A DNA stretch of 58,428 nucleotides from Patescibacteria group bacterium (GTDB taxonomy: Bacteria > Patescibacteriota > Minisyncoccia > Phycocordibacterales > UBA9973): positions 1 to 58,428 of the forward strand of contig JAHJBA010000055.1 in NCBI GenBank assembly GCA_018813625.1. The letters run 5' to 3'. Shown one piece after another: positions 1,445-58,428 of the stretch; position 1 is the stretch's first letter; each line of letters begins with the position of its first letter. The notes beneath the pieces are model-generated. The model ran no database searches. It was given only the letters and a program-made list of their open reading frames with translations, and had not been told where the DNA came from. The position numbers and the translations under genes are program-made.

Positions 1445-3154
1445 TTATCTGTCTGGTGGAATTTCATAATAATTAAGTAAAAATTTTGCAATATCCAAAA
1501 ATGGATCTGCCCAAGTTTGCGAAGCATAAAGAATTCCTTTGGGATTTACTGCATAAAGAAAAATAATAAATTTTGGCTCATAGGCGGGTAAATAACCAAA
1601 AAAAGAATGCGTATGCCTGTCTTCATAATATCCTCGTCCATCTTCTTTGGCAACTTGCGCCGTTCCAGTTTTCACAGCAATAGAATAATGATCCATCTTT
1701 GCAAGCCCGCCCTTAAGTGATTTATCCATGACTGTTACTAGCATCCTAGTTATTTCTTCCGAAGTTTTTTCGGAAATTTTAGTCTGGGTACTTTCATATG
1801 TAATATTTTTTTTAGTGCCATCTTCATATTTTATTGTTTTTATAAGATGTGGAACAACTAATTTCCCCCCATTAGACAACGAAGCAAGCGCACGTATTGT
1901 CTCTACTGGAGTCATTGCTATTCCCTGCCCGAAGGAAGCATTTGCATATTCAATATCTCTAGGACTTTGCAAGTTTGACACCAATCCACTGGTTTCGTTT
2001 GGCAGATCAATCCCTGTTTTTTTTCCTATGCCATATGAAAGCAAATAGTCGCGCAAGTTATCGTGCCCTAACTTATGCGATACAAAAACCATCCCGGTAT
2101 TAAGAGATTGATTTAAAACCTCCTGCATATCCACAACACCTCTAGCTTTTTTGTCAAAATTATTTATTTGCTTTTCCTCAACAATCACTGATCCTCTGTC
2201 TTCATATTTAGTTCCAGCAGTAACTACTCCTGTATCTAAACCAGCGGCCATAACGAGTGGTTTTACAACAGATCCAAATTCAAAAACATTTTCTACTAAT
2301 GGGCTTGAAAAAATTGAAGCATTTTTTACATTAGAAAAATTATTTAAATCAAAATCAGGTTTTACCCCCATCGCATAAATTGATCCATCTTCCGGGTTCA
2401 TAATTATTCCACCAATGGAATCAACTTGATATTTTTCTTTCACCTGTGTAAGTTTTTTTTCTAAAAAACCCTGAACTGCCGGTTCTATGGTCGTAATTAT
2501 ATCTCCCTTTTTTATTTCATTACTCAAAAAAGTCTTATTTATATTCGAAAAGACTTCTGCAAAAAAATTCACATAGGGATTATCTTCGTCCCTAGAAAGA
2601 GTAGTATTATATTGTCTCTCAAGTCCGTAACGTCCGCTAAAATCATTTCCTTTGTATCCCAAAAATCCAAGAGTATGGGAAGCAAGATTACCTCCAGGAT
2701 AAAAACGCCATTTTTCTTTGTAAACATATACTCCGGGGATTTTTTTACTTGAAATATAATCAGCTTCTTCTTTAGTAAGACGATTCGCAATCTCCTCATA
2801 AGGGTCGCTCTTTTTGCTTGCTTTTAAAATAAATCCGTCGTGATCAAGAGTTATTTTTTCTGACAATTTAACATAAACTTCCTCATCGTCACTTATTTGA
2901 CTTGGATTTATGGCAACTTTAAAGCCAGTAGTTTGAGTGGCGGCGGAAACTAGTTGCCCATCTTTACGCTCAAAAAAAATACTTCCACGCTCAAATATAT
3001 CAGATGAAGATGTAACATATTGGTGATCTGCTCGCTCCATATAAGAATTTTTATGCACTACCTGCACCAAAAAAAGCTTTGATATTAATATCAAAGCAAA
3101 AATCAAAATAAAAAAAGACGTCACCTTAATTCTAGAAAAAAAACTAGAGCTCAT
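1445..3154 (-). CDS. ftsI: Penicillin-binding protein 2/3-type transpeptidase (FtsI-like)
   Basis: 569 aa with an N-terminal TM segment. Transpeptidase motifs SVVK (SxxK), SLN (SxN) and KTGT are all present. Position after ftsL-like gene. Confidence 0.85.
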   Translation of the reverse strand: MSSSFFSRIKVTSFFILIFALILISKLFLVQVVHKNSYMERADHQYVTSSSDIFERGSIFFERKDGQLVSAATQTTGFKVAINPSQISDDEEVYVKLSEKITLDHDGFILKASKKSDPYEEIANRLTKEEADYISSKKIPGVYVYKEKWRFYPGGNLASHTLGFLGYKGNDFSGRYGLERQYNTTLSRDEDNPYVNFFAEVFSNINKTFLSNEIKKGDIITTIEPAVQGFLEKKLTQVKEKYQVDSIGGIIMNPEDGSIYAMGVKPDFDLNNFSNVKNASIFSSPLVENVFEFGSVVKPLVMAAGLDTGVVTAGTKYEDRGSVIVEEKQINNFDKKARGVVDMQEVLNQSLNTGMVFVSHKLGHDNLRDYLLSYGIGKKTGIDLPNETSGLVSNLQSPRDIEYANASFGQGIAMTPVETIRALASLSNGGKLVVPHLIKTIKYEDGTKKNITYESTQTKISEKTSEEITRMLVTVMDKSLKGGLAKMDHYSIAVKTGTAQVAKEDGRGYYEDRHTHSFFGYLPAYEPKFIIFLYAVNPKGILYASQTWADPFLDIAKFLLNYYEIPPDR

Positions 3155-23691: not shown

Positions 23692-24939
23692 TTATCCCCT
23701 ATTTTTTATATTTACAAGGGCAATCACTCTGTTCATCTCATTACTGACGATCATATATCCCTCATCAACACCCATACCTGGTTTTGCCATACACTGGTCT
23801 GCTCCGCAAGCCATAGCGATATTAGTACTTATTCTTGCGGATATGTCCGTTTCATTGCATGTACCTCCACAATACGCCCCTATTCCTTTTTCCTTACAAT
23901 AAAGAATAGCTTTTACAGTATTATTTACCCCTCCCAAATCTGGGGTCTTTATTTGAAGCATATGCCCTGCTTTATTGTCAGCAAAAAAAACAACATCCTC
24001 ATAGGTATTGCACCACTCATCTGCCACAAGTTCTACTTTTATATTTCTTTTTTTTAACTCCGCAGTCAAATCTCTCAAGGTTTCCATTTGTTTTTCTCTA
24101 TTTCCCATATCTACGGGTCCTTCTATTCTTAAAAGAAATGGTTTTGCTGTTTCTTCCAATTTCTTTAAATAATCAGATATAGCATCTATGTCATTATTAA
24201 AAATTTCCCCTATTGTTCCATAAACATCTACAAGAAATATCGGATTGTAATTTTCAGAATGTCGCAACTTTAACACCCTTTCTTTCAACCAATTAATATA
24301 CTCCAAAAGTTTTTCTCCTTTTTCTCCCAATTTTTCTTTTATATTGTTTATTAATGCATGCGGCATAACTTCCACACCTTTTATTATCATTTTGTCTGAA
24401 TTATCATATCTGTCATCTCCCGACTGGGTAAAAATAGGAATTCTTTTTATTTCTACTCCAATATTATATTCTTCACTAATTACCTCTGCCATAGTCACTT
24501 TTTTAATCTTAGCTATTGCGTCAAGTAATGCCTGAGTAATCCCATATCTTATGGCAGGATGTAATCTTTTACCATCTATCTCCATTTCATCAAGTTCTTC
24601 AGCTAAGACTTTAAAACTTCCTAATTCTTTTCCAATTAATCTTGGAGTTATCTCTTTCTCAAGAACAGGAATAAGATCCTCCGTAAAAAATAACGGGGCC
24701 CTCCCCCCTGTTCCAGAATATTGAACCGCAACACAATCTCCAAAGGCAATTTGACCATCCTCTAAAATAAACATTATAGATATTGACTCTCCTGGCTGTC
24801 TTATATCTTTAAAACCTTCTGTTACAGGTTTTCCGGTATATACAAAACCATCATGAATAGCGCCATTTTTTACAGCTTTCAAATCATCAAAATAAAATCC
24901 AGTCTTTCCAGATGAATAAACTACATCTATAATCTTCAT
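23692..24939 (-). CDS. 3-methylaspartate ammonia-lyase homolog (enolase superfamily)
   Basis: 415 aa, colinear with my recollection of Clostridium MAL: MKI.DV...G.TGFYFDD, FTQSGDDRYDN, PHALINN, VDVYGT, LRIEGP, VADEWCNT, QIKTPDLGG, KPGMGVDEG. Confidence 0.75.
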   Translation of the reverse strand: MKIIDVVYSSGKTGFYFDDLKAVKNGAIHDGFVYTGKPVTEGFKDIRQPGESISIMFILEDGQIAFGDCVAVQYSGTGGRAPLFFTEDLIPVLEKEITPRLIGKELGSFKVLAEELDEMEIDGKRLHPAIRYGITQALLDAIAKIKKVTMAEVISEEYNIGVEIKRIPIFTQSGDDRYDNSDKMIIKGVEVMPHALINNIKEKLGEKGEKLLEYINWLKERVLKLRHSENYNPIFLVDVYGTIGEIFNNDIDAISDYLKKLEETAKPFLLRIEGPVDMGNREKQMETLRDLTAELKKRNIKVELVADEWCNTYEDVVFFADNKAGHMLQIKTPDLGGVNNTVKAILYCKEKGIGAYCGGTCNETDISARISTNIAMACGADQCMAKPGMGVDEGYMIVSNEMNRVIALVNIKNRG

Positions 24940-48735: not shown

Positions 48736-49632
48736 ATGATCGATACTGTAGTAAATACAAAAAACTTAAAGGAAGCTGATGTCGTGATATTGAGCGCCCC
48801 ATATGAAGGAGGTGTTTCTTTTATGGGCGGTACATCCAAAGCTCCTAAAAAGATATTAAACTGTTTAAATAAAAATTTAGAACTTTTTGATATAAATTTT
48901 CTCTGCGAGCCAGCAAAGATAATAAAAACGGCTCATAAGGAAATTACCGGTATAAAAAATCTTATTTCTGATAAAGTTGTAAGGAAAATAAGCGAAGAAT
49001 ATAAAAATTTATTTAATGATAAAAAATTTGTAATTATGCTAGGCGGGGAACACACTGTATCTATCGGGGCACTTGATGCGATTGCAAAAAAAGAGAATCC
49101 AAGAGATATAACGATCGTCCAAATAGACGCTCATCAGGATTTACGTGATGACAACAGCGACTATAGCTACCGTCCTACAAAATATGCACACTCTTGCGCG
49201 ATGCGTAGACCTCATGAGCTTGGCTTTAATTTAGTGCAAGTCGGCATACGTACTTTCTCAAAAAATGAATATGAATATTGGCAAAAAAATAAAGATACAA
49301 TTGAAGTATTTGAGTGGAGCGAAAAAAATAAGCATATTCCAGAGATAGTTAAAATAATCGAATCAATAAAAACTGAAAAGGTTTATTTAACTATCGATGT
49401 CGATGGATTTGACCCTTCATGCATGCCTGGTACCGGCACTCCAGCCCAAGGAGGAATTGAGTGGAAATATGGCCTCGATTTAATCGAGAAAATTATAGAA
49501 ACAAAAAATGTCATTGGTGCAGACATAGTAGAAGTATCACCGCAAAAAGACTCCGTTCTAACAGAATACGGAGCATCTTTGATTTGCTATAAAATAATGG
49601 CAAATAAATTCAGAAATAAACTAACTTCTTAA
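48736..49632 (+). CDS. speB: Agmatinase/ureohydrolase family protein
   Basis: 298 aa with arginase-fold Mn ligand motifs GGEHTVS, DAHQDLRD and DVDGFDP. Confidence 0.8.
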   Translation: MIDTVVNTKNLKEADVVILSAPYEGGVSFMGGTSKAPKKILNCLNKNLELFDINFLCEPAKIIKTAHKEITGIKNLISDKVVRKISEEYKNLFNDKKFVIMLGGEHTVSIGALDAIAKKENPRDITIVQIDAHQDLRDDNSDYSYRPTKYAHSCAMRRPHELGFNLVQVGIRTFSKNEYEYWQKNKDTIEVFEWSEKNKHIPEIVKIIESIKTEKVYLTIDVDGFDPSCMPGTGTPAQGGIEWKYGLDLIEKIIETKNVIGADIVEVSPQKDSVLTEYGASLICYKIMANKFRNKLTS

Positions 49633-50199
49633 AAATTTCTTTCGATAAATAAAATAAACTTCAACTAAGTTTGCCAACACTAAATATATTGGGAATGAAT
49701 ATATCGCGAAAATCCAATTTCTGACGATTAATAAAGATAATGTATTCCCTATAATTCCTCCAATATAAATTGAGCTATTCTCGGTTTCTGGGTACTTCCA
49801 AGTTTTAATAAAAGTTGGAATATAAGCCAAAAAGTCGCTCAAAATGGCAAAAAGTATGGAAATTCCCAAGTTATTTGTAATTATATAAAGAACAAGAGCC
49901 ATTATGGAAATAAAACCGCAAACCAAATCAAAAGACTGTATTTTCCAAAAAGCATTTTTCTTAAATATTGAAAAAACTATTACCAAAAACGGACCAACAC
50001 CTGCCATTAATACGCTTAGTGAAGAAAGTCCTGCTCCTGCTTTTAATTGCAAAAATACCCCGACAAACGGCGCAAGCATCCAAACAAACCAAGAAATTAA
50101 ATTAGGCCTAGTGCCATGCCGAAAAATCCCGCGAATATACCAAATCGTACAAATAAGATTTATCAAAACTCCTATAAAAATGATATTTTCAGGTAACAT
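49621..50199 (-). CDS. Hypothetical 6-TM membrane protein
   Basis: 192-aa hydrophobic ORF. Convergent 12-nt overlap with speB. Confidence 0.5.
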   Translation of the reverse strand: MLPENIIFIGVLINLICTIWYIRGIFRHGTRPNLISWFVWMLAPFVGVFLQLKAGAGLSSLSVLMAGVGPFLVIVFSIFKKNAFWKIQSFDLVCGFISIMALVLYIITNNLGISILFAILSDFLAYIPTFIKTWKYPETENSSIYIGGIIGNTLSLLIVRNWIFAIYSFPIYLVLANLVEVYFIYRKKFLRS

Positions 50200-50275
50200 C
50201 CCAGTACTAAAATTTTAAATTGTTAATAATGGTGATCATTTATTTCGTACAAAAATTTAGTACGGGACAAGTATT

Positions 50276-51973
50276 TTAATAAACCTCCTGCTGATAACAC
50301 TTTTCGCAATAAACTATTTCTGGCCTGTCTGGAGCATAAGCTGTTTTAATTTCTCTTTTACATTTAGCACATTCTCGATTATATGACTTAGGAGGTAAAA
50401 CTAAATCAAATCTATCTTTACGTCGACATTCAGGACATTTTCTTGGTATTCTCAAATTTAGTTTTTTAAGAATATTCAATTCTCCTTCTATTATTTTATA
50501 ACAACGGCCACATTCACATCTTATAATTTCATTTAAAACATTTTTAAAATCACTTAATTTATCAGGTAATTCTAAATATTCAATAGTATGCACATATTTA
50601 TTTGGTGTAGATTCAAACCATAGATAACCACTGTCTAATGCTTCCTCTTTGTTCTTTATAAAATATTGATTAGCGATAGTTTCATTATAACCAAATGATG
50701 AAAATTCAACTGGAAAAAATTCCCCATATCTATAAACCCTTCCTTTTTTGTCTATATAAGGATTTTCATTCATATTCTTAATGATTTTTTCTCTTAATTT
50801 TTCATAATCATCTTTTAAATATTCTTTATTTAAAATGCAATATTTTTTTCTTTTTAAGTTTGAACAACCAAAAATATACTTGCAGGAGGAAGAGTAATAA
50901 CTATACTCGTTATTATAAGAATCCGGATAAGATCCTATGCAAAATTTTATATCTGACGCTTCGTGCCCTGAAATCAAAGTTTCATAAGCCAAAGAACAAT
51001 TACCTCCCCAACAAGTATAATCATAACAATCCCTTGTGAAAGGAACTGACAGGAATTGCACAAAACGAGAATTCTCAGCACTTGTTCCCAAATAAACATC
51101 ATGAGAATTTTTTGATTCATAAACATAATTACCGGAAACATTTACATTTAAACTATTTCCGTAATATTCCCTATTTGGTTTGGTAATCCAAAAATCTTCT
51201 GACATTTTTTTATATTTAGAAAACTCAGAATAAGAAAATAAATCTATGTTTTTTATAAAATCAAAATATTCCTCTTTTGAACATTGTTTATTAAAAACAC
51301 AATATTGTTTATTCTTTAAATTCATAGAGCCAAAACAATTGTTGCAACCCGAACAATTTTTACAAAAAAATAAATCAAAAGAATTTTCACACTCAAGACA
51401 GGAAATACAATTAAAACATTTATAAATTCCAGTACATTCATAACAAAGCTCCGATTCTCGTGCCCTATGACAATCTGAAGAATCCTTTAAGGTATGCAAA
51501 AAATCTGAATAAAAAGAATTCTCACAAAAATCTGCATAAAATAAAGCGTAGCAATTTTTTAGATAAGAAGAATAATTAGTATAATTTGTGTTAATAAGGG
51601 AAGAATACAAAGTATCAACAGACATATGAGGAGTTTTATTTTTTAATTCCAAAAGTTGTTCTAAGAAATTACGATTTTGATCATAATCCATCCCATACTC
51701 AGTTCCATCCCAATCATCCGCCCACCAACACTTGGAACAAAAAACAATTTGTTTTTTGTCTTTATGAAACATAGAAATAATGTTTTCATTACACTTATTA
51801 CATTTACTTTTATACAAAGAATAAACATTCATAAACGCTAACCTCCTTTGAAATCTACAATCGGGACAAAAGGTAGGCGGAGGAACTTTTATTTTTTCGT
51901 AAAAATTAAAATCTTCAGATTCTATAGTGAAGTCTTTTTTACAATTCTGGCATTGTTTTGTTTCGTTTTGCAT
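50276..51973 (-). CDS. Cys-rich zinc-ribbon-bracketed protein, paralog A
   Basis: Start set at MQNETKQCQNC, 2 nt after the paralog B stop; the track ORF starts at 52000. 565 aa, and I count 39 Cys. Four CxxC pairs at the N-terminus and four Cys pairs (CxC/CxxC) at the C-terminus. Ends CEKCYQQEVY. Confidence 0.75.
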   Translation of the reverse strand: MQNETKQCQNCKKDFTIESEDFNFYEKIKVPPPTFCPDCRFQRRLAFMNVYSLYKSKCNKCNENIISMFHKDKKQIVFCSKCWWADDWDGTEYGMDYDQNRNFLEQLLELKNKTPHMSVDTLYSSLINTNYTNYSSYLKNCYALFYADFCENSFYSDFLHTLKDSSDCHRARESELCYECTGIYKCFNCISCLECENSFDLFFCKNCSGCNNCFGSMNLKNKQYCVFNKQCSKEEYFDFIKNIDLFSYSEFSKYKKMSEDFWITKPNREYYGNSLNVNVSGNYVYESKNSHDVYLGTSAENSRFVQFLSVPFTRDCYDYTCWGGNCSLAYETLISGHEASDIKFCIGSYPDSYNNEYSYYSSSCKYIFGCSNLKRKKYCILNKEYLKDDYEKLREKIIKNMNENPYIDKKGRVYRYGEFFPVEFSSFGYNETIANQYFIKNKEEALDSGYLWFESTPNKYVHTIEYLELPDKLSDFKNVLNEIIRCECGRCYKIIEGELNILKKLNLRIPRKCPECRRKDRFDLVLPPKSYNRECAKCKREIKTAYAPDRPEIVYCEKCYQQEVY

Positions 51974-51975
51974 AA

Positions 51976-53703
51976 TTAATATACTTCCTGTTGATAACAT
52001 TTCTCACAAAAAACTATTTCAGGTCTGTCCGGAGCATAAGAAGTCTCGAATTCTACTTCACAGTGTTTATCCCCATGGAAATGGCTGATTTTGTCACACA
52101 TGCATTGTCTATGCCAGAGTTTCATTGGATTTTTTAATTTCATTCTTTCTTTATTTCTTTCATCTGGATGAAATCTTGGAATTGGAATATTCATCCTTTT
52201 ATAAAATTCTAATTCAAATTTTGTTAATTTAAATGCCCTACCTGATTTTTCACATTCTATAACTTCATCTAATATAGAATCATCAATGTCTTTAATATTG
52301 TCAGAAATATCTTTCGCTTTTAATGTAATAACATATTTATTATCAACTTTTTCTTTATATGGATATCCCTTTTCTATTATTTCCTCTTTTGTTAACGGAA
52401 AATGATCATTTGTTACTGATTCATTGTAACCATGAGGACAAAATTCATACGGAAAAAATTCACCATATTTATATATCCTACCTCTTTTATCTGTATACGG
52501 CATTTCGTCCATATGTTTTTTAATTTTTTCTACCATCTCAAAATACTCTTCTTTTTCATATTGTTTATTTAAAATACAATACTTTCTATTTTTTAATGCA
52601 ATACAACCAAATAGATAACTGGAAGATCTACAAACATCTGTATATTCAACATTATTTAGAGCGGGTGCTCCGTTTACTACAAATTTAACATTTGACCCAT
52701 TTTCTGAACCACCAGAAGAATGCTCATAAGCTAATTCTGCCCATGAATGACAAACATCCATAGAATCTTTTGCATGAGTAATCCTATACCCATATTTAAT
52801 ATTATGGTTATCATGTCCCTTAAAAGAATAAGAAAGATTTTTAGAATCTAAAAGTTCATCCCCATTTGAATTAACACAATTTATTATTCGTCCATATTTT
52901 CTTGGAAATCCCAATGAAAAATTCCAAAATTTAGTAAAGGTTTTTTGGGTAAATTTATAACTTCCAATATTAAAATCTTTTATTTTCTTTAAATATTCTT
53001 CCCTGGAAAATTGTTTGTTCCAGATGCAATAATTTTTATTTCTAAGATTCACACAACCAAAACAATTCTGACAATTTATACAATCTAAAATAAAATTAGA
53101 ATCTATACAACTTGAGGACCAATAAGAATACTGACAATTATAATTTTTTGTACTGCCAATATTTTGGTACAGTAATTGACTATTTATTATATTATATGAA
53201 TCAACTATTTCTTTAGAATTATCAATATTACTTGAAAAGTATACGCTCTCCGAGCCTAGAAGAGTAGAATATGAAAGATACACATCTTTAACATCTTTAA
53301 CATAATTACAATATTCAGAATTTAAATTTTTACCTATTTTCCAAAGTGATTGACGTGGTATTGTGTTAAATAATTCTTGCCATTGTTTAAAAAAATTTTT
53401 AGAAAAATCATATTTTTGATTGTACTTACCTGGATCCCAAGCGTCACTCCACCAACACTCTGGACAATACACAGGAAAAGGAACTCCGTCATCGTACATA
53501 GAAATAATATTTTTCTTGCACATATCACAACTTCTCTTATATAAAGATCTTTCGTTTCTCCAAATCATTCGACGAACAAAACGACAATGTGGACAAAAAG
53601 TCGGCGGAGGAACTTTTATCTTTTCATAAAAGTTAAAATCTTCAGATTCTATAGTGAAGTCTTTTTTACAATTCTGGCAATTTTTAACTTCACTATTATG
53701 CAT
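51976..53703 (-). CDS. Cys-rich zinc-ribbon-bracketed protein, paralog B
   Basis: 575 aa. N-terminal residues CQNCKKDFTIESEDFNFYEKIKVPPPTFCP are identical to A. The third ribbon is degenerate (CEKSGRAF / FHPDER). Ends CEKCYQQEVY. Confidence 0.75.
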   Translation of the reverse strand: MHNSEVKNCQNCKKDFTIESEDFNFYEKIKVPPPTFCPHCRFVRRMIWRNERSLYKRSCDMCKKNIISMYDDGVPFPVYCPECWWSDAWDPGKYNQKYDFSKNFFKQWQELFNTIPRQSLWKIGKNLNSEYCNYVKDVKDVYLSYSTLLGSESVYFSSNIDNSKEIVDSYNIINSQLLYQNIGSTKNYNCQYSYWSSSCIDSNFILDCINCQNCFGCVNLRNKNYCIWNKQFSREEYLKKIKDFNIGSYKFTQKTFTKFWNFSLGFPRKYGRIINCVNSNGDELLDSKNLSYSFKGHDNHNIKYGYRITHAKDSMDVCHSWAELAYEHSSGGSENGSNVKFVVNGAPALNNVEYTDVCRSSSYLFGCIALKNRKYCILNKQYEKEEYFEMVEKIKKHMDEMPYTDKRGRIYKYGEFFPYEFCPHGYNESVTNDHFPLTKEEIIEKGYPYKEKVDNKYVITLKAKDISDNIKDIDDSILDEVIECEKSGRAFKLTKFELEFYKRMNIPIPRFHPDERNKERMKLKNPMKLWHRQCMCDKISHFHGDKHCEVEFETSYAPDRPEIVFCEKCYQQEVY

Positions 53704-53705
53704 AA

Positions 53706-54791
53706 TTAAATCCCCTCTTTTTTGAGCTGTTCGACAAGATCTTGTGCCTTTCGAGAAAGCTTATTAGGAAGCTTAATATTTAATTTAATTAGAAGATCAC
53801 CGCGCTTAGTTTTAGAAACAGGCACCCCTTTTCCCTTCACACGCAGAATTTCATTTATTTTTACGCCTTCAGGAATCTTAACTTTTATCTCGCCGTCTAG
53901 TGTTTCAATAGGATATTCAGCACCCAAAAGAGCGTCAGATAATTTTAAATTCAAATTCATTACTAGGTCATGACCTTCTCTTTTAAATGTCGGATGTGGT
54001 GTAACATTTATTTTTATATACAAATCTCCGGAAGTCCCTTTTGAAATTGCCTCCCCCATTCCGGACAGGCGAATCATCTCACCATCGCGAATACCTGCGG
54101 GAATATTAATAGAAATCTCTTCTTCACGTCGTAACACCCCAGCACCCTTACATTTATCGCATTTTTCAGTCGGAACCTGCCCAGAACCTAAGCATTCTTC
54201 ACAGATTCTTGTGCTTTGAATAGAACCAAGAAATGATCTTTTAATTTCACGTATTTTTCCTTGACCATTGCAATATTTACAAGTATTCATCTTTGTCCCC
54301 GCTTTCGCCCCAGATCCGTTACAAGTAGTACAATTCGAAGTTTTTGTAATTAAAATTTTTCTATTAACACCGAAAACAGCTTCAGAAAAAGAAATTTGTA
54401 TTTCGGTAGAAATATCTCTGCCACGACGAACCTTTGCTCTACCTCCTCCGCCTCCTGTAAAGAAATCAGAAAAAATATCATTTAAATTTCCAAAATCAAA
54501 TTCTGTTCCCCCATTTTGAAATCCAGAAAAATCGAAACCTCCAAAACCGCCTTGCTGATATCCACCAGCTCCACCCATATTTTCGAAACCAGGACCAAAT
54601 TGATCATATTTCGAACGCCTAGCGTCATCAGAAAGTATTTGATAAGCCTCGTTCACTTCCTTGAATTTCTTTTCATCTCCACCTTTCTTGTCTGGATGAT
54701 ATTTATGCGCCATCTTATAAAAAGCCTTCTTTATTTCGTCCTTCGACGCACTTTTATTTACACCTAATATTTCATAATAGTCTTTACTCAT
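53706..54791 (-). CDS. dnaJ: Chaperone DnaJ (type I)
   Basis: 361 aa with a J domain (YHPDKK), G/F-rich linker, four CxxCxGxG motifs ([32 protein letters not shown]) and a C-terminal domain. Confidence 0.92.
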
Positions 54792-54807
54792 AGTATTTAT
54801 TTTAGAA

Positions 54808-56364
54808 TTATATCATAGGTTCAACCTCTTGGGAAGTCTTTTTGCTTACTTGTTTTTTCCCGGCACCCTGACTATCGTCAGAGATCGGGAAACCAACCTC
54901 TTCAGACGTCGGGGCTTCATCGTCTTCTTTTACTTCCTGTTTGTTTTTTAATTTTCTTTTAGCTTTTCCTTCGATTATTGCTTTTTCTTCTGCGCTTCTT
55001 ATAATTGAGGCCTCCTCCTCGGCAATAAGATTTGCAGCGGCATCTTTAGCAATGGTATATTTTCTGTGAGATGCCTCGTAAATTTCTTTTTTATATGAAT
55101 GATGAGTCGGAGGCAAAACTCGCAAAGTTTCCGCTGAAAATGGATCATAAGATTCACCATCAATTGTCATTTTTACGTAAATTTCACCAACTGCAAGGTT
55201 AATCATATCTTTGACATCAAAAACTGGAGAAAACTCCGGCTTCATTTTAACGGCATCTTCTCCTCCAACACGGAAAGTAATAATACTACCGCAATTACCA
55301 AGCACCGCCTGGTGAACTCGAGTAATAACTTGACCGACATATTGGTGCGCAATAGTAAGGTTCAGGGCATATTTTCTAGCTTCCGATAAAATATTTTCAA
55401 AAGTTTGGGTGACAACATTTTGAAACTCATCTACGTATAAATAAAAATCCTTACGCTCACTTTCCGGTATGGCTGCGCGTTCCATTCCGGCTTGTTTTAT
55501 TTTTGTTAGAAAAATTGAACCAAGAAAACTGGAATTTTCTTCTCCCAAACGGCCCTTGGAAAGATTGATGAGAATAATTTTTCCTTCATTCATCAATTTA
55601 CTAATATCTATTTTATTTTCTTTCTGTCCAAAAATATTTCTAAGCAACGGATCTGAGAGAAATTGTCCCAATTTATTTACCAAAGGAATAATGGCATCCG
55701 TATCAAATTTTTCTGACCAGTCAGCAAATTCTATAGCGAAGAATCTTTTGACCATATCATCGGTAATGTATTCAACAACTTTTTGTCTGTAATTTCTGTC
55801 CGTAAGCATTGAAATCATCCCGCGCATCGTGGCATGCGGATAATCAAGCAGAGCCAGACAAGTAAAACGAAAAACGTGCTCCAGTCGAGGCGTCCAGTTT
55901 GCTCCAAATTGTTTTTGGAAAACTTCAATTAATCCTTGAGTAAGCTGAAATTTAAACATCGGATCAACATTTGCAAGTGGATTAAATGATGCTGGAAAAT
56001 CAACATCAGAAGGATCAATAATACAAACATCTTCTATTCGTTCTTTTGGTATATAATCAAGAATCGCATCCATTGTCTCTCCGTGCGGATCAATAAGACA
56101 TAAGCCATGGTTATATGTTACATCCTGCCTGATTAAAAGTTCTAATAGCTTAGACTTTCCGACGCCGGATTTTCCAAGAATATAAAGATGCCTTCTGCGA
56201 TCTACTCTTTTGATTCCAAAAATAAATTTTTTTTCTTCCAAGGCTGCAACATAGTTTGTTCGTCCAATAAAAGAAACCTCCGCTGGGTCGAATCTTCCAA
56301 AAACCGGTAATTCCGGTGGAGGTGGAGCATATTTTATCAGTTGAACTCGATTTGGCTTTGCCAT
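54808..56364 (-). CDS. Soluble TraD/VirD4 (T4CP)-like P-loop NTPase
   Basis: 518 aa with Walker [10 protein letters not shown], Walker [11 protein letters not shown] and [16 protein letters not shown], a coupling-protein-like motif. No TM segment. K/E-rich low-complexity tail. Confidence 0.55.
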
Positions 56365-56407
56365 ATACTTGCTTATTTTACTATGATTTTAGGTTATTTT
56401 CAAATCT

Positions 56408-58114
56408 TTAATATACTTCTTTTTTATAACAATCTTTGCAAAAAATTTTAGGTGCTTCATCTTCTGTATAATGAGTTTTAAAATAAATACCACATTTATC
56501 ACACACTCTATCTATTTCTTTCATCTGAGAAACCCACGTTTTTACTTTTTCTTCTATTCTACAAAATGGACATTGTCTAGAAAGTGGCACATTTAATTTT
56601 TTTACCAAATCTATTTCTTGACTTACTATTTTATATCCTCGTGGACAAGTACTACATTGGATAACTTCTTTTAATATTTCATTGGAAGTATCTTTTATGT
56701 TATCAGGTAAATCCGTGTAATTTATAGTTATCGGATATTTTTCAAAAAAATGATCATGCCATCTTAATTTATAATCTTCAACTTCATTTTTTGTTTTTGA
56801 AAATAAAAAATTGGCATAAGAATTATTATAAGCATGTGGAGAAAATTCCATTGGAAAAAATTCTCCATATCTATATACATTTCCTTTTTTATCTACATAT
56901 GGCATATCTTCCATGTGCTTTATTATTTTCTCACGTAATTTAAAATACTCTTCCTTGCTATATTGCTTATTTAAAATACAATACTTTTTATTTCTAATAG
57001 AGATACATCCAAAATAATCAGATCCTCCGACAACTGACTTACAATATTCTGCATCATTCAATCCCCAACCAGATTCATGACTAAATTTTACATTAAAAGG
57101 GCTTTCTCCAACAGTCACACATTCGTAAATCAATTCAGCATTCATGCCCCAATCAACATAATCATAACTATCCTTCGTTGAACCATCTCTAATAAGCATA
57201 AGATATTTTGAATCTTCACAAGATGTAACATCAAAACATTGTTTGCAATTTTTAGATCTAAAAACATAACTACCTGAAACATTATTACTTTGAGTTTCCC
57301 ATACTGGCTGAGGTAATGTATTTTTAAAATATTCCTGTGCTTTTTCTTTCCAATATATATATTCTTTATAGGAGCCTAAATCAATATTATTTATTTTCTT
57401 TTTGTATTCTTCCTCAGAAAATTTTTCACCCATAAATACATATGAACCATTTTTTATATTTGCTACTCCAAAGCAATGGTGTGCACCTTCACAATCTCTA
57501 ATAAAAGCACTATCATAACAAAATCTGTTATTACTTATTGATCCATATATATTGTATGATTTAAAAAGATTTGAACAATCAAAACATTTTTCTGAATCCA
57601 TAACAACAGAACATATATATAAATCCTTATTTCTAGTCAACCAAAAATCAGAAACACAATCTTCGTTGTAATCTGAAAAATAAACCATATAACAATTCCT
57701 TGAATGAGCTACATGATTTACATATGGTGAAGTTTTAATGGTTGCAGAATCTACGTGAAGAGCTAAAACAGGGGTTTTACATAAGAGTTCTTTCCATTGT
57801 TCTAAGAATGGTTTATTAAAATCAATCTCTATACCAAAACTTAATGGATCCCAATTGTCACTCCACCAACATTTTACACAGTAAACAGTAAAAGGAGCAT
57901 TAGGTTCATACATTGAAAGTCCTTCTTCCCCACACAAATCACATTTCCTTTTAAACAAAGTAAAACTTGGCATCCAAGCAAGCCTTCTTTGCAATCGACA
58001 ATTTGGACAAAAAGTCGGAAGAGGAACTTTGATTTTTTCGTAAAAGTTAAAATCCTCAGGTTCTATAACAAAATCATGTTTACAGTTCTGACATTGTTTT
58101 GTTTCATTTTCCAT
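56408..58114 (-). CDS. Cys-rich zinc-ribbon-bracketed protein, paralog C
   Basis: 568 aa. N-terminus CQNCKHDFVIEPEDFNFYEKIKVPLPTFCPNCR. C-terminal ribbons CSTC/CPFC and CDKC/CKDC. Ends CKDCYKKEVY. Confidence 0.75.
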   Translation of the reverse strand: MENETKQCQNCKHDFVIEPEDFNFYEKIKVPLPTFCPNCRLQRRLAWMPSFTLFKRKCDLCGEEGLSMYEPNAPFTVYCVKCWWSDNWDPLSFGIEIDFNKPFLEQWKELLCKTPVLALHVDSATIKTSPYVNHVAHSRNCYMVYFSDYNEDCVSDFWLTRNKDLYICSVVMDSEKCFDCSNLFKSYNIYGSISNNRFCYDSAFIRDCEGAHHCFGVANIKNGSYVFMGEKFSEEEYKKKINNIDLGSYKEYIYWKEKAQEYFKNTLPQPVWETQSNNVSGSYVFRSKNCKQCFDVTSCEDSKYLMLIRDGSTKDSYDYVDWGMNAELIYECVTVGESPFNVKFSHESGWGLNDAEYCKSVVGGSDYFGCISIRNKKYCILNKQYSKEEYFKLREKIIKHMEDMPYVDKKGNVYRYGEFFPMEFSPHAYNNSYANFLFSKTKNEVEDYKLRWHDHFFEKYPITINYTDLPDNIKDTSNEILKEVIQCSTCPRGYKIVSQEIDLVKKLNVPLSRQCPFCRIEEKVKTWVSQMKEIDRVCDKCGIYFKTHYTEDEAPKIFCKDCYKKEVY

Positions 58115-58137
58115 ATTATTTCTATTCTATAATTCTA
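58112..58137 (-). promoter_or_regulatory. Repeated upstream element, copy 1 (in front of paralog C, overlapping the arsR 3' end)
   Basis: Minus strand reads TAGAATTATAGAATAGAAATAAT-ATG, 24/26 identical to copy 2. TAGAAT lies 9 nt from the ATG. ATTCTA-N8-TAGAAT inverted repeat at 58132-58151. Confidence 0.45.
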
Positions 58138-58394
58138 ACGAATTGTAGAATACTTTTACCACGATTGGTAAGTTTATGTCGTACAATATTACCCTCACTT
58201 CTCTTCATGAGAAGTCCTGATATAGCCATTTTATTCATATGAGCAGATATATTTTTAAACTCTGATTTTAATTTGTCAGATACCTCCTGCACAGACAATT
58301 CTGGCTCTTTGCCTAATAATTCAAGTATTTGTAATCTTCTATGATTAGCAAAACCTTTGACTATCCTTTCCAATTCCCTGTTTGATTTTTTCAT
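58122..58394 (-). CDS. ArsR/SmtB-family winged-helix transcriptional regulator
   Basis: 90 aa with FANHRRLQILELL...LSVQEVSDKL...NISAHMNKMAISGLL, a typical ArsR HTH. No metal-binding Cys is apparent. Confidence 0.75.
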   Translation of the reverse strand: MKKSNRELERIVKGFANHRRLQILELLGKEPELSVQEVSDKLKSEFKNISAHMNKMAISGLLMKRSEGNIVRHKLTNRGKSILQFVRIIE

Positions 58395-58423
58395 AATTTT
58401 TCTATTCTATAATTCTATAGAAT
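58392..58423 (-). promoter_or_regulatory. Repeated upstream element, copy 2, plus a perfect 12-bp palindrome upstream of arsR
   Basis: Minus strand reads ATTCTATAGAAT-TATAGAATAGAAAAATT-ATG. The palindrome ATTCTATAGAAT is at 58412-58423 and TATAGAAT is tandemly duplicated. The window ends 5 nt further upstream. Confidence 0.45.
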
Positions 58424-58428
58424 ATTAG

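Follow-up and report, generated by a model that had tools for sequence, protein, structure and literature searches.

The stretch analysed here (henceforth the window) comprises 58,428 nucleotides (nt) of the genome of a patescibacterium (contig JAHJBA010000055.1 of the assembly GCA_018813625.1), and its last part is occupied by six consecutive minus-strand genes (positions 50276-58394). In the direction of transcription these genes encode an ArsR/SmtB-type winged-helix regulator of 90 amino acids (aa) that remains below the family cut-offs (58122..58394), the Cys-rich paralog CysC of 568 aa, located directly upstream of the ATPase gene and devoid of Pfam and NCBIfam matches (56408..58114), a soluble TrwB/VirD4-type P-loop ATPase of 518 aa, here called N1, with a predicted all-α insert and disordered termini (54808..56364), a housekeeping type I DnaJ of 361 aa (53706..54791), and two further Cys-rich paralogs, CysB of 575 aa (51976..53703) and CysA of 565 aa (50276..51973). 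The head-to-tail arrangement, with intergenic gaps of 7, 43, 16, 2 and 2 nt, had been noticed in an earlier sequence-only reading of this DNA and is confirmed by the list of open reading frames (ORFs); the start of CysA was placed at an internal ATG, in agreement with the N-terminus of the family and with the public gene call for the same protein. A scan for promoters and terminators returned the same counts in the block as in shuffled sequence and does not inform about operon structure. Comparison with related loci reveals a conserved module composed of two soluble coupling-type ATPases, N1 and its paralog N2, and a family of predicted zinc-finger/β-helix proteins, which in the lineage of the window is located in the Hsp70 operon. 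The block would represent the 3' part of this Paceibacteria-specific module, with N1 inside the window and N2 expected just past its end.

The three Cys-rich proteins exhibit 43-45% pairwise identity over their full length (40-45% for CysC against CysA and CysB) and all possess the N-terminal motif quoted in the sequence-only reading as well as the C-terminal ..C..CY..EVY, which bears out their description as paralogs. The cysteine content of about 7 percent attributed to all of them holds for CysA (39 Cys, 6.9%), but not for CysB (28 Cys, 4.9%) or CysC (32 Cys, 5.6%); the mean of the family is 6.2%. Relatives of CysB are extremely numerous: at least 6,983 were found in a collection of 5.8 billion proteins, in which none of them carries a precomputed Pfam domain, and those with names are all annotated as "hypothetical protein" of Nomurabacteria, Paceibacterota, Jorgensenbacteria and other Paceibacteria-type candidate phyla radiation (CPR) bacteria. 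An exhaustive search of representatives clustered at 50% identity yielded 3,820 clusters at E ≤ 1e-3 and 1,426 clusters at E ≤ 1e-30. The Cys-rich family is therefore very large, unnamed and restricted to Paceibacteria, and the published work that was searched describes neither the family nor the module.

The claim that these proteins belong to no characterised family has also stood up to profile and structure searches. Pfam and NCBIfam, searched with the single Cys sequences and with 51 aligned members, returned only sub-threshold matches to treble-clef domains; PADLOC and PHROGs gave zero matches for CysA, CysB and CysC, and a search of PDB sequences with 3- and 149-sequence profiles of the family retrieved only an insignificant match to a LIM-like finger. 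A tblastn search with CysB against 50,697 phage records gave no match, and a phage origin of the family was rejected on this ground. The sub-threshold matches fall in residues 531-563 of CysA, which resemble treble-clef and CxxC-x17-CxxC domains; the scores of the Cys proteins against the corresponding hidden Markov models TIGR04272 and PF23477 are 15.8 (cut-off 36) and 18.5 (cut-off 27), and families of this type (TIGR04272, PF23477, PF13451) are weakly matched by just 4-6 of the 51 members. Similarity to TIGR04272/PF23477 extends to the exact spacing of one of the fingers described below, but this domain accounts for only ~7% of a Cys protein. Small CxxC-x17-CxxC proteins of Methanosarcina mazei were found to bind zinc by inductively coupled plasma mass spectrometry (PMC12704099).

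Comparison of the family profile with itself by HHalign revealed two internal duplications, one that relates residues 4-86 to residues 479-572 (probability 99.7%, E 9.5e-27) and one that relates residues 125-244 to residues 275-394 (probability 99.9%, E 6e-36), hence the architecture A-B-B'-x-A'. Each A module contains two Cys4 sites, namely a CxxC...CPxCR site followed by conserved arginines, and a CxxC-x17-CxxC finger (finger 2), which in the N-terminal module shows the exact C-x2-C-x17-C-x2-C spacing at C59, C62, C80 and C83. The arginines after the CPxC knuckles form conserved clusters in both terminal modules (R41, R44, R45, R516, R520 and R532). The C-terminus is fixed, with 139 of 149 members ending exactly 10 residues past the last CxxC and with the consensus ...VYCExCYQxEV[Y/V]. 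The terminal modules show the highest mean column conservation (0.68-0.70, calculated in 25-residue blocks), compared with 0.31-0.45 in much of the body, parts of which reach 0.62-0.68. The B units display a ladder of cysteines with a period of 3 (autocorrelation 0.68 at lag 3), fullest in CysA among the three paralogs, and an AlphaFold2 model of CysB, built from the 149-sequence alignment and predicted with high confidence to form a single body (predicted local distance difference test (pLDDT) 93.1, predicted template modelling score (pTM) 0.92), has β-bridges at every third residue.

The predicted fold is thus one of duplicated double zinc fingers flanking a Cys-laddered β-helix, with the zinc sites and the helix geometry deduced from residue spacing and from secondary-structure strings. 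At most ladder positions no more than 20-60% of members have a cysteine, and the second β unit is largely devoid of such cysteines, so that the positions look like elements of core packing rather than obligatory ligands of a cofactor; for the same reasons the ladder was deemed unlikely to hold Fe-S clusters. The period of 3 may be likened to narrow β-helices with 12-residue turns and inward-facing Cys, Ser and Ala, presumably of the type known from the Tenebrio antifreeze protein; unlike the latter, the Cys proteins are predicted to be cytoplasmic, with no evidence of disulfides. A Foldseek search of the CysB model against PDB and BFVD returned nothing at E ≤ 1e-3. Its best matches, to left-handed β-helix acyltransferases, are non-significant (E 9.7e-3 and probability 0.10 for the best one, template modelling (TM) score <0.12), and the Cys proteins have neither the hexapeptide-repeat signature nor a Hexapep match in Pfam; these matches were rejected, as were the tiny, non-significant ones to zinc ribbons.

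N1 carries the motifs GKSGVGKS (Walker A), YVDEFQN (Walker B) and AHQYVGQ and is weakly matched by the Pfam families DUF87/HerA, T4SS-DNA_transf, TrwB_AAD_bind and TraG-D_C. A joint profile of N1 and N2 retrieved TrwB (2.5e-6) from PDB sequences, along with DotL and HerA. The AlphaFold2 model of N1 (pLDDT 75, pTM 0.75) shows a helical insert at residues ~135-259 and disordered ends, and Foldseek finds TrwB as its best match (E 5e-13, target-normalised TM score 0.60-0.65), followed by Cagβ (2e-12), HerA and DotL (2.6e-9). N1 is accordingly modelled with the fold of coupling proteins, including the all-α domain that corresponds to the substrate- or adaptor-binding domain of TrwB, Cagβ and DotL, but without a membrane anchor. 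No N-terminal transmembrane anchor was detected in either N1 or N2 (maxima of 1.02 and 1.13 in a 19-residue Kyte-Doolittle window), and the ATPase core begins within ~30-50 residues of the N-terminus; the sequence-only reading of N1 as a soluble TraD/VirD4-like NTPase without transmembrane segments is in good agreement with these results. N2 is a paralog of N1 (47% identity over the ATPase core) with a C-terminal extension that consists of a CxxC-x17-CxxC finger, a disordered linker and a conserved terminal helix. This finger aligns with finger 2 of the terminal module of the Cys family (HHalign probability 91%, E 1e-6), and N2 proteins carry a precomputed PF23477 (CxxC-x17-CxxC) annotation.

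Phage relatives of N1 are distant, with 22-28% identity to proteins of Bacillus, Lysinibacillus and Microcystis phages. N1 resembles the C-terminal half of phrog_5156, a family of 824 positions with no assigned function (E 6e-53), and is also similar to a Microcystis phage protein and, at 28% identity over 377 aa, to gp156 of the Bacillus jumbo phage G. Relatives of the soluble coupling-type ATPase, fused to an uncharacterised N-terminal half, are therefore present in some phages.

Gene neighbourhoods were compared in two samples, namely 79 loci around a Cys paralog, taken from genomes of GTDB species, and 80 metagenome loci around N1, picked by N1 similarity (individual loci are denoted by L and a number). 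Fractions of 29 refer to those N1-centred loci that extend at least 5 kb to both sides; many loci are phylogenetically related, and the counts do not represent independent events. The second sample exhibits a near-invariant order: grpE, zero to three Cys genes, a divergent gene for a PaaX-like protein, dnaK, N2, zero to four Cys genes, N1, dnaJ, zero to two Cys genes and a gene for a 192-aa membrane protein, followed by cysS, a permease gene, recR and dnaB. DnaJ is encoded within 5 kb of N1 in 29/29 loci, a Cys paralog within 5 kb in 27/29 and N2 within 10 kb in 28/29, hence the adjacency of the Cys genes to the NTPase and to dnaJ in the window is conserved and not a product of chance.

In virtually all related loci dnaJ directly follows N1, and dnaK and grpE are situated more distantly on the upstream side; in many relatives a Cys gene directly precedes N1, as CysC does in the window. 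The DnaJ protein of the window scores 398.7 bits against TIGR02349 (equivalog cut-off 377.2), matches the Pfam families DnaJ, DnaJ_CXXCXGXG and DnaJ_C, and contains a J domain with the HPD motif, a G/F region, four CxxCxGxG motifs and the C-terminal domain. The sequence-only reading took it for an orphan, dedicated J-protein; it belongs, however, to a grpE-dnaK-dnaJ operon into which N2, N1 and the Cys arrays have been interposed, and is the housekeeping dnaJ of that operon. As was correctly noted there, dnaK, grpE and hrcA are absent from the window, but the window stops exactly where its relatives carry N2, dnaK and grpE. The ArsR gene has only 34 nt upstream of it before the sequence ends, both in the window and in its near-identical public counterpart (L088; contig JAHJIR010000036.1 of GCA_018823255.1), and in ArsR-bearing relatives (L071, L154, L165) Cys genes, N2 and dnaK are found at the position beyond this end. 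In 24 N1-centred loci a divergent gene immediately upstream of dnaK (e.g. L095:2146-2685, minus strand) encodes a PaaX_M/winged-helix protein of 180 aa, which may be a heat-shock regulator that substitutes for HrcA.

The ArsR-like protein, on the other hand, is a sporadic accessory of the module, an occasional local regulator and not a conserved component, contrary to its earlier designation as the head and local repressor of the block. It is encoded within 5 kb in only 2/29 N1-centred loci, although in L071, L114, L154 and L165 a homologue immediately precedes a Cys paralog. Its score against the NCBIfam model HTH_metalloreg (NF033788) is 47.4 bits (cut-off 55) and against PF01022 it is 20.8 (cut-off 22), with several other sub-threshold matches to Pfam families of winged helix-turn-helix domains, and its likeness to ArsR is confined to the fold. 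The protein has three histidines and no cysteine, and therefore no thiolate metal-sensing site.

The location of the module suggests one explanation that has to be weighed, namely that N1 and N2, as ring ATPases derived from coupling proteins, constitute an unfoldase or disaggregase that is a partner of Hsp70, as ClpB is of DnaK, and that the paralogs are zinc- or redox-sensitive co-chaperones, holdases or client-specific adaptors. The DnaK-N2-N1-DnaJ core is invariant in the window's lineage and is retained even where no Cys gene lies between the NTPases (L094, L095, L112, L146, L155, L160), Cys paralogs often follow directly after grpE (L005, L010, L065, L081, L084, L156, L160), and the conservation of N1 equals that of core housekeeping proteins. 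A precedent is provided by Ruc, a zinc-ribbon protein of Mycobacterium tuberculosis (Rv0991c), which is a redox-regulated holdase encoded in dnaK/dnaJ/grpE/clpB loci (PMC7448276); Ruc and Hsp33 are redox-switched Cys4 zinc-binding chaperones from dnaK/dnaJ/grpE neighbourhoods, and the Cys-rich proteins, predicted to bind zinc through Cys4 sites, are encoded in such neighbourhoods too. However, Ruc comprises one zinc ribbon of ~50 aa and a disordered tail of 7-61 residues (PMC7448276), whereas the Cys-rich proteins are ~570 aa long, multi-domain, multi-copy and of a rigid fold, the confident prediction of which (pTM 0.92) sets them apart from disordered holdases. No sequence relation of the paralogs to Ruc or Hsp33 was detected in the Pfam, NCBIfam and PDB profile searches, and in other lineages (L008, L011, L012, L044, L074) NTPase and Cys genes form arrays in fetched loci where no gene is labelled as Hsp70. 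We regard this explanation as unlikely.

The association of the NTPases with the Cys genes is indeed wider than that with Hsp70. L011, L012, L044, L058 and L074 exhibit a second order, N1-(Cys)-N2, and none of the genes in these fetched loci (~10 kb) carries an Hsp70 label. The locus L085 combines N1 with a Cys array in the absence of N2, the Jorgensenbacteria locus L008 combines N1 with nine Cys genes in 20 kb, which is the largest tandem array, and in the Liptonbacteria loci L068 and L082 Cys arrays are accompanied by a divergent N2. Because the link between the NTPases and the Cys genes is seen in two gene orders and in distant lineages, it is more robust than the link to Hsp70: the former outlasts rearrangement and lineage divergence, and the latter is lineage-specific.

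An alternative without any functional coupling is that the Cys family is independent and expanding, that its copies gather at the 3' ends of expressed operons, the Hsp70/NTPase region among them, and that the observed order reflects common descent only. In about half of the Cys-centred loci a Cys copy stands alone among housekeeping genes unrelated to it (e.g. next to pgk or rpoD), the unrelated downstream genes cysS, recR and dnaB are equally conserved in order, and a part of the synteny signal is therefore shared descent. The base composition also differs, with G+C contents of 0.29-0.30 in the segments with Cys paralogs (50001-54000 and 56001-58000) and 0.37 in the segment with N1 and dnaJ (54001-56000), compared with ~0.35 in the whole window; the low G+C content of the Cys genes may result from a composition rich in Asn, Lys, Tyr and Cys, or from faster evolution. 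Moreover, the closest relatives of CysB and CysA occupy different genomic slots. On the other side of the balance are the Cys arrays located between or beside N1 and N2 in both gene orders and in distant lineages, the finger type that N2 has in common with the Cys family, and the presence of a Cys gene within 5 kb of N1 in 27/29 loci, against ~20% expected by a rough estimate that assumes ~15 randomly placed copies in a genome of ~700 kb. A mere common descent without coupling appears quite improbable in view of these observations.

The components of the module differ greatly in their rates of evolution. In 58 loci, N1 and DnaJ have median identities of 84% and 75%, respectively, to their counterparts in the window, but the best Cys copy of the same locus reaches only 39-45%; single comparisons with a representative locus protein gave 82% for DnaB, 75% for CysS and 69% for RecR. 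Across Paceibacteria the identity of N1 ranges from 74 to 92%. In the N1-centred loci the choice by similarity to N1 inflates this identity, but in loci chosen on the Cys paralog it still amounts to 74-88%. The nearest relatives of CysB (69% identity) are solitary copies after rpoD or pgk, and those of CysA lie in a grpE array or beside dnaK; the paralogs therefore move between slots, and positional orthology among them was ruled out. In L060, L079 and L154 some Cys paralogs appear split into two or three adjacent ORF fragments (e.g. L154:6493-7860), which suggests pseudogenisation and turnover in the arrays, or assembly errors. Taken together, the rates of sequence divergence fit an essential, slowly evolving pair of motors amid a fluid, faster-evolving family that would behave like clients.

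The paralogs diverge within tandem arrays and include apparent pseudogene fragments, which is reminiscent of conflict systems and brings up a nucleic-acid machine, in which N1 and N2 would be DNA translocases like TrwB, FtsK and HerA and the paralogs zinc-finger specificity factors for the uptake or processing of DNA or for an anti-phage system of the HerA type. TrwB and HerA, the closest structural relatives of N1, are titled DNA translocases or conjugative coupling proteins in PDB, PADLOC returned mad8 (2.5e-11) and weak HerA matches for N1, the arginine clusters after the CPxC knuckles are conserved in both terminal modules, and comEC and recJ are found near some Cys copies. Defence pairs such as SIR2-HerA and DUF4297-HerA, and the MADS system with mad8, likewise combine an ATPase of the HerA/FtsK superfamily with a partner encoded beside it (Foldseek matches 8sub, 8zir and 9c1m). 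However, N1 is nearer to TrwB than to HerA, and the module lacks nuclease and other effector enzyme domains. The Cys proteins are unknown to PADLOC and PHROGs and were not found in the phage collection, and isoelectric points of 5.9-8.1 are atypical of DNA-binding proteins. In contrast to patchy defence islands, N1 is near-universal, highly conserved and fixed in a housekeeping position on the chromosome. A role in nucleic-acid transactions appears quite improbable as well.

The nearest known analogy is to our mind provided by the type IV coupling complexes, in which adaptors and effectors dock onto the C-terminal tail of a coupling-protein ATPase. N1 is modelled with the same fold as TrwB of R388, VirD4/Cagβ and the ATPase of the Legionella DotL complex, including the all-α insert; the candidate clients are encoded beside the ATPase genes, and N2 has a long C-terminal extension. 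In the DotL complex, which includes DotM, DotN, IcmSW and LvgA, it is the tail of DotL that docks the adaptors, one of which, DotN, binds zinc. The differences are also considerable. The ATPases of the module lack a membrane anchor and are two paralogs instead of one, the module is embedded in the Hsp70 operon, and the candidate clients form one huge family whose fold is found neither in PDB nor in BFVD.

In terms of mechanism, N1 and N2 would act as hexameric ATPases on the fast-evolving, Cys-rich multigene family. The conserved terminal double zinc-finger modules may serve as handles by which the ATPases recognise otherwise divergent paralogs, and N2 bears the same type of CxxC-x17-CxxC finger on a long flexible C-terminal arm. 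As cargo, the paralogs would be unfolded and passed on, possibly to a type IV secretion system (T4SS) encoded elsewhere; alternatively, they would be exchangeable adaptors. Hsp70 and DnaJ, presumably co-transcribed with the module inserted into their operon in the window's lineage, plausibly keep the zinc-rich proteins competent for assembly or translocation. That the Cys paralogs are clients, either cargo or exchangeable adaptors, of the paired ATPases N1 and N2, with Hsp70 co-expressed, is the explanation we favour, but tentatively, as one that falls somewhat short of being probable; the comparisons establish the gene content, the folds, the size of the family, its internal duplications and the conserved gene order, and from these we infer the physical interaction, the client relationship, any export and the involvement of Hsp70. 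A more specific version, in which the paralogs are substrates or substrate-selecting adaptors of the patescibacterial T4SS, or part of a soluble protein-handling machine with two ATPases and Hsp70, is rather unlikely but deserves to be spelled out.

The wider census of coupling proteins is of relevance here. Patescibacteria were reported to encode 5,713 VirD4-like homologues in 2,918 genomes, i.e. ~2 per genome, only 148 of which are near virB4, and their role was left open (PMC12102498). Relaxase homologues are few in these bacteria (109 in 103 genomes), and the substrates of their T4SS are not known (PMC12102498, PMC12857230).

Several observations count against a client relationship and against export, in addition to the solitary Cys copies, the order-conserved unrelated neighbours and the selection effect on N1 identity mentioned above. 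No gene for VirB4, relaxase or another T4SS component was found within ~10 kb in the loci inspected with Pfam annotation. The module proteins have no signal peptides or transmembrane segments, and none contains a hydrophobic stretch resembling a transmembrane helix (19-residue Kyte-Doolittle mean ≤1.13), which weakens the export variant in particular. Finally, compact proteins with four predicted zinc sites are poor candidates for translocation.

Contact with the membrane might be provided by neighbouring genes. Downstream of CysA the window encodes a polytopic membrane protein of 192 aa with ~6 hydrophobic segments (49621..50199, minus strand), the gene of which overlaps by 12 nt at its 3' end with a convergent gene of the arginase family. 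Its homologues are encoded at most 300 nt after DnaJ or the last Cys gene in 53 related loci, and between N1 and N2 in L058; Pfam, NCBIfam and PDB gave no match for it. This conserved downstream protein may be a membrane partner of the module, of which it is an uncertain member. In L008, L011, L044, L074 and L085 N1 is preceded by genes for two other conserved membrane proteins (e.g. L044:2953-5952), U464 (~465 aa, two N-terminal transmembrane helices) and U174 (~174 aa, one transmembrane helix), neither of which has a match in Pfam, NCBIfam or PDB, and in L011, L044 and L085 a sigma70-r4/HARE-HTH protein is encoded ahead of them. U464 and U174 are possible membrane partners of the soluble ATPase, consistent with work at the membrane.

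The remaining genes of the window are ordinary housekeeping genes, including those for a mur ligase, mraW, ftsA, ftsZ, several aminoacyl-tRNA synthetases, dnaB and recR. The other ORF of ~570 aa (1445-3154, minus strand) encodes a PBP2-type transpeptidase and not a fourth Cys paralog. A full-length methylaspartate ammonia-lyase (23692-24939, minus strand; MAAL_N E 1e-70, MAAL_C 4.5e-117) is encoded next to cell-wall genes of the murG, ftsW and mraY type, which is unexpected in a reduced CPR genome. The window differs from the contig of GCA_018823255.1 at 3 positions in 13.6 kb; at one of them, the codon for Tyr549 of CysC is a stop codon in the public record, where the gene is called with 548 aa and the last zinc knuckle is lost. 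Either a polymorphism in the population or a mistake in assembly could account for this difference.

As outlined above, the Cys-rich family and the gene arrangement are new, and the ATPase and DnaJ come from known families. The undescribed system proposed in the sequence-only reading persists as a conserved module, minus its supposedly dedicated dnaJ and its ArsR head and with the addition of N2 and the downstream membrane protein, which that reading could not reveal; DnaJ and the NTPase may, as suggested there, fold or export the paralogs. Paceibacteria rank with the most abundant of the uncultivated bacteria, and the way in which they exploit their hosts is largely obscure. According to published work, a cultured Saccharibacterium cannot grow epibiotically without its patescibacterial T4SS (PMC12857230, PMC12102498). 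Through the module, orphan coupling ATPases become linked both to the Hsp70 system and to a tangible protein family of very large size and novel structure. The tiny genomes of these bacteria spend several genes of 1.7 kb, up to nine per 20 kb, on the Cys family, which argues for an important function, and its predicted fold, in which duplicated double zinc fingers would clamp a Cys-laddered β-helix, is of structural interest in itself. The proteins of the module are specific candidates for pull-down, localisation and secretome studies in the few co-cultures available. If the paralogs are indeed substrates or adaptors of the T4SS, or parts of a soluble machine, the module would constitute a novel class of translocation or remodelling system that is coupled to Hsp70 and built on a fold without solved or predicted viral relatives, and that would serve episymbiotic ultra-small bacteria in dealing with their hosts.

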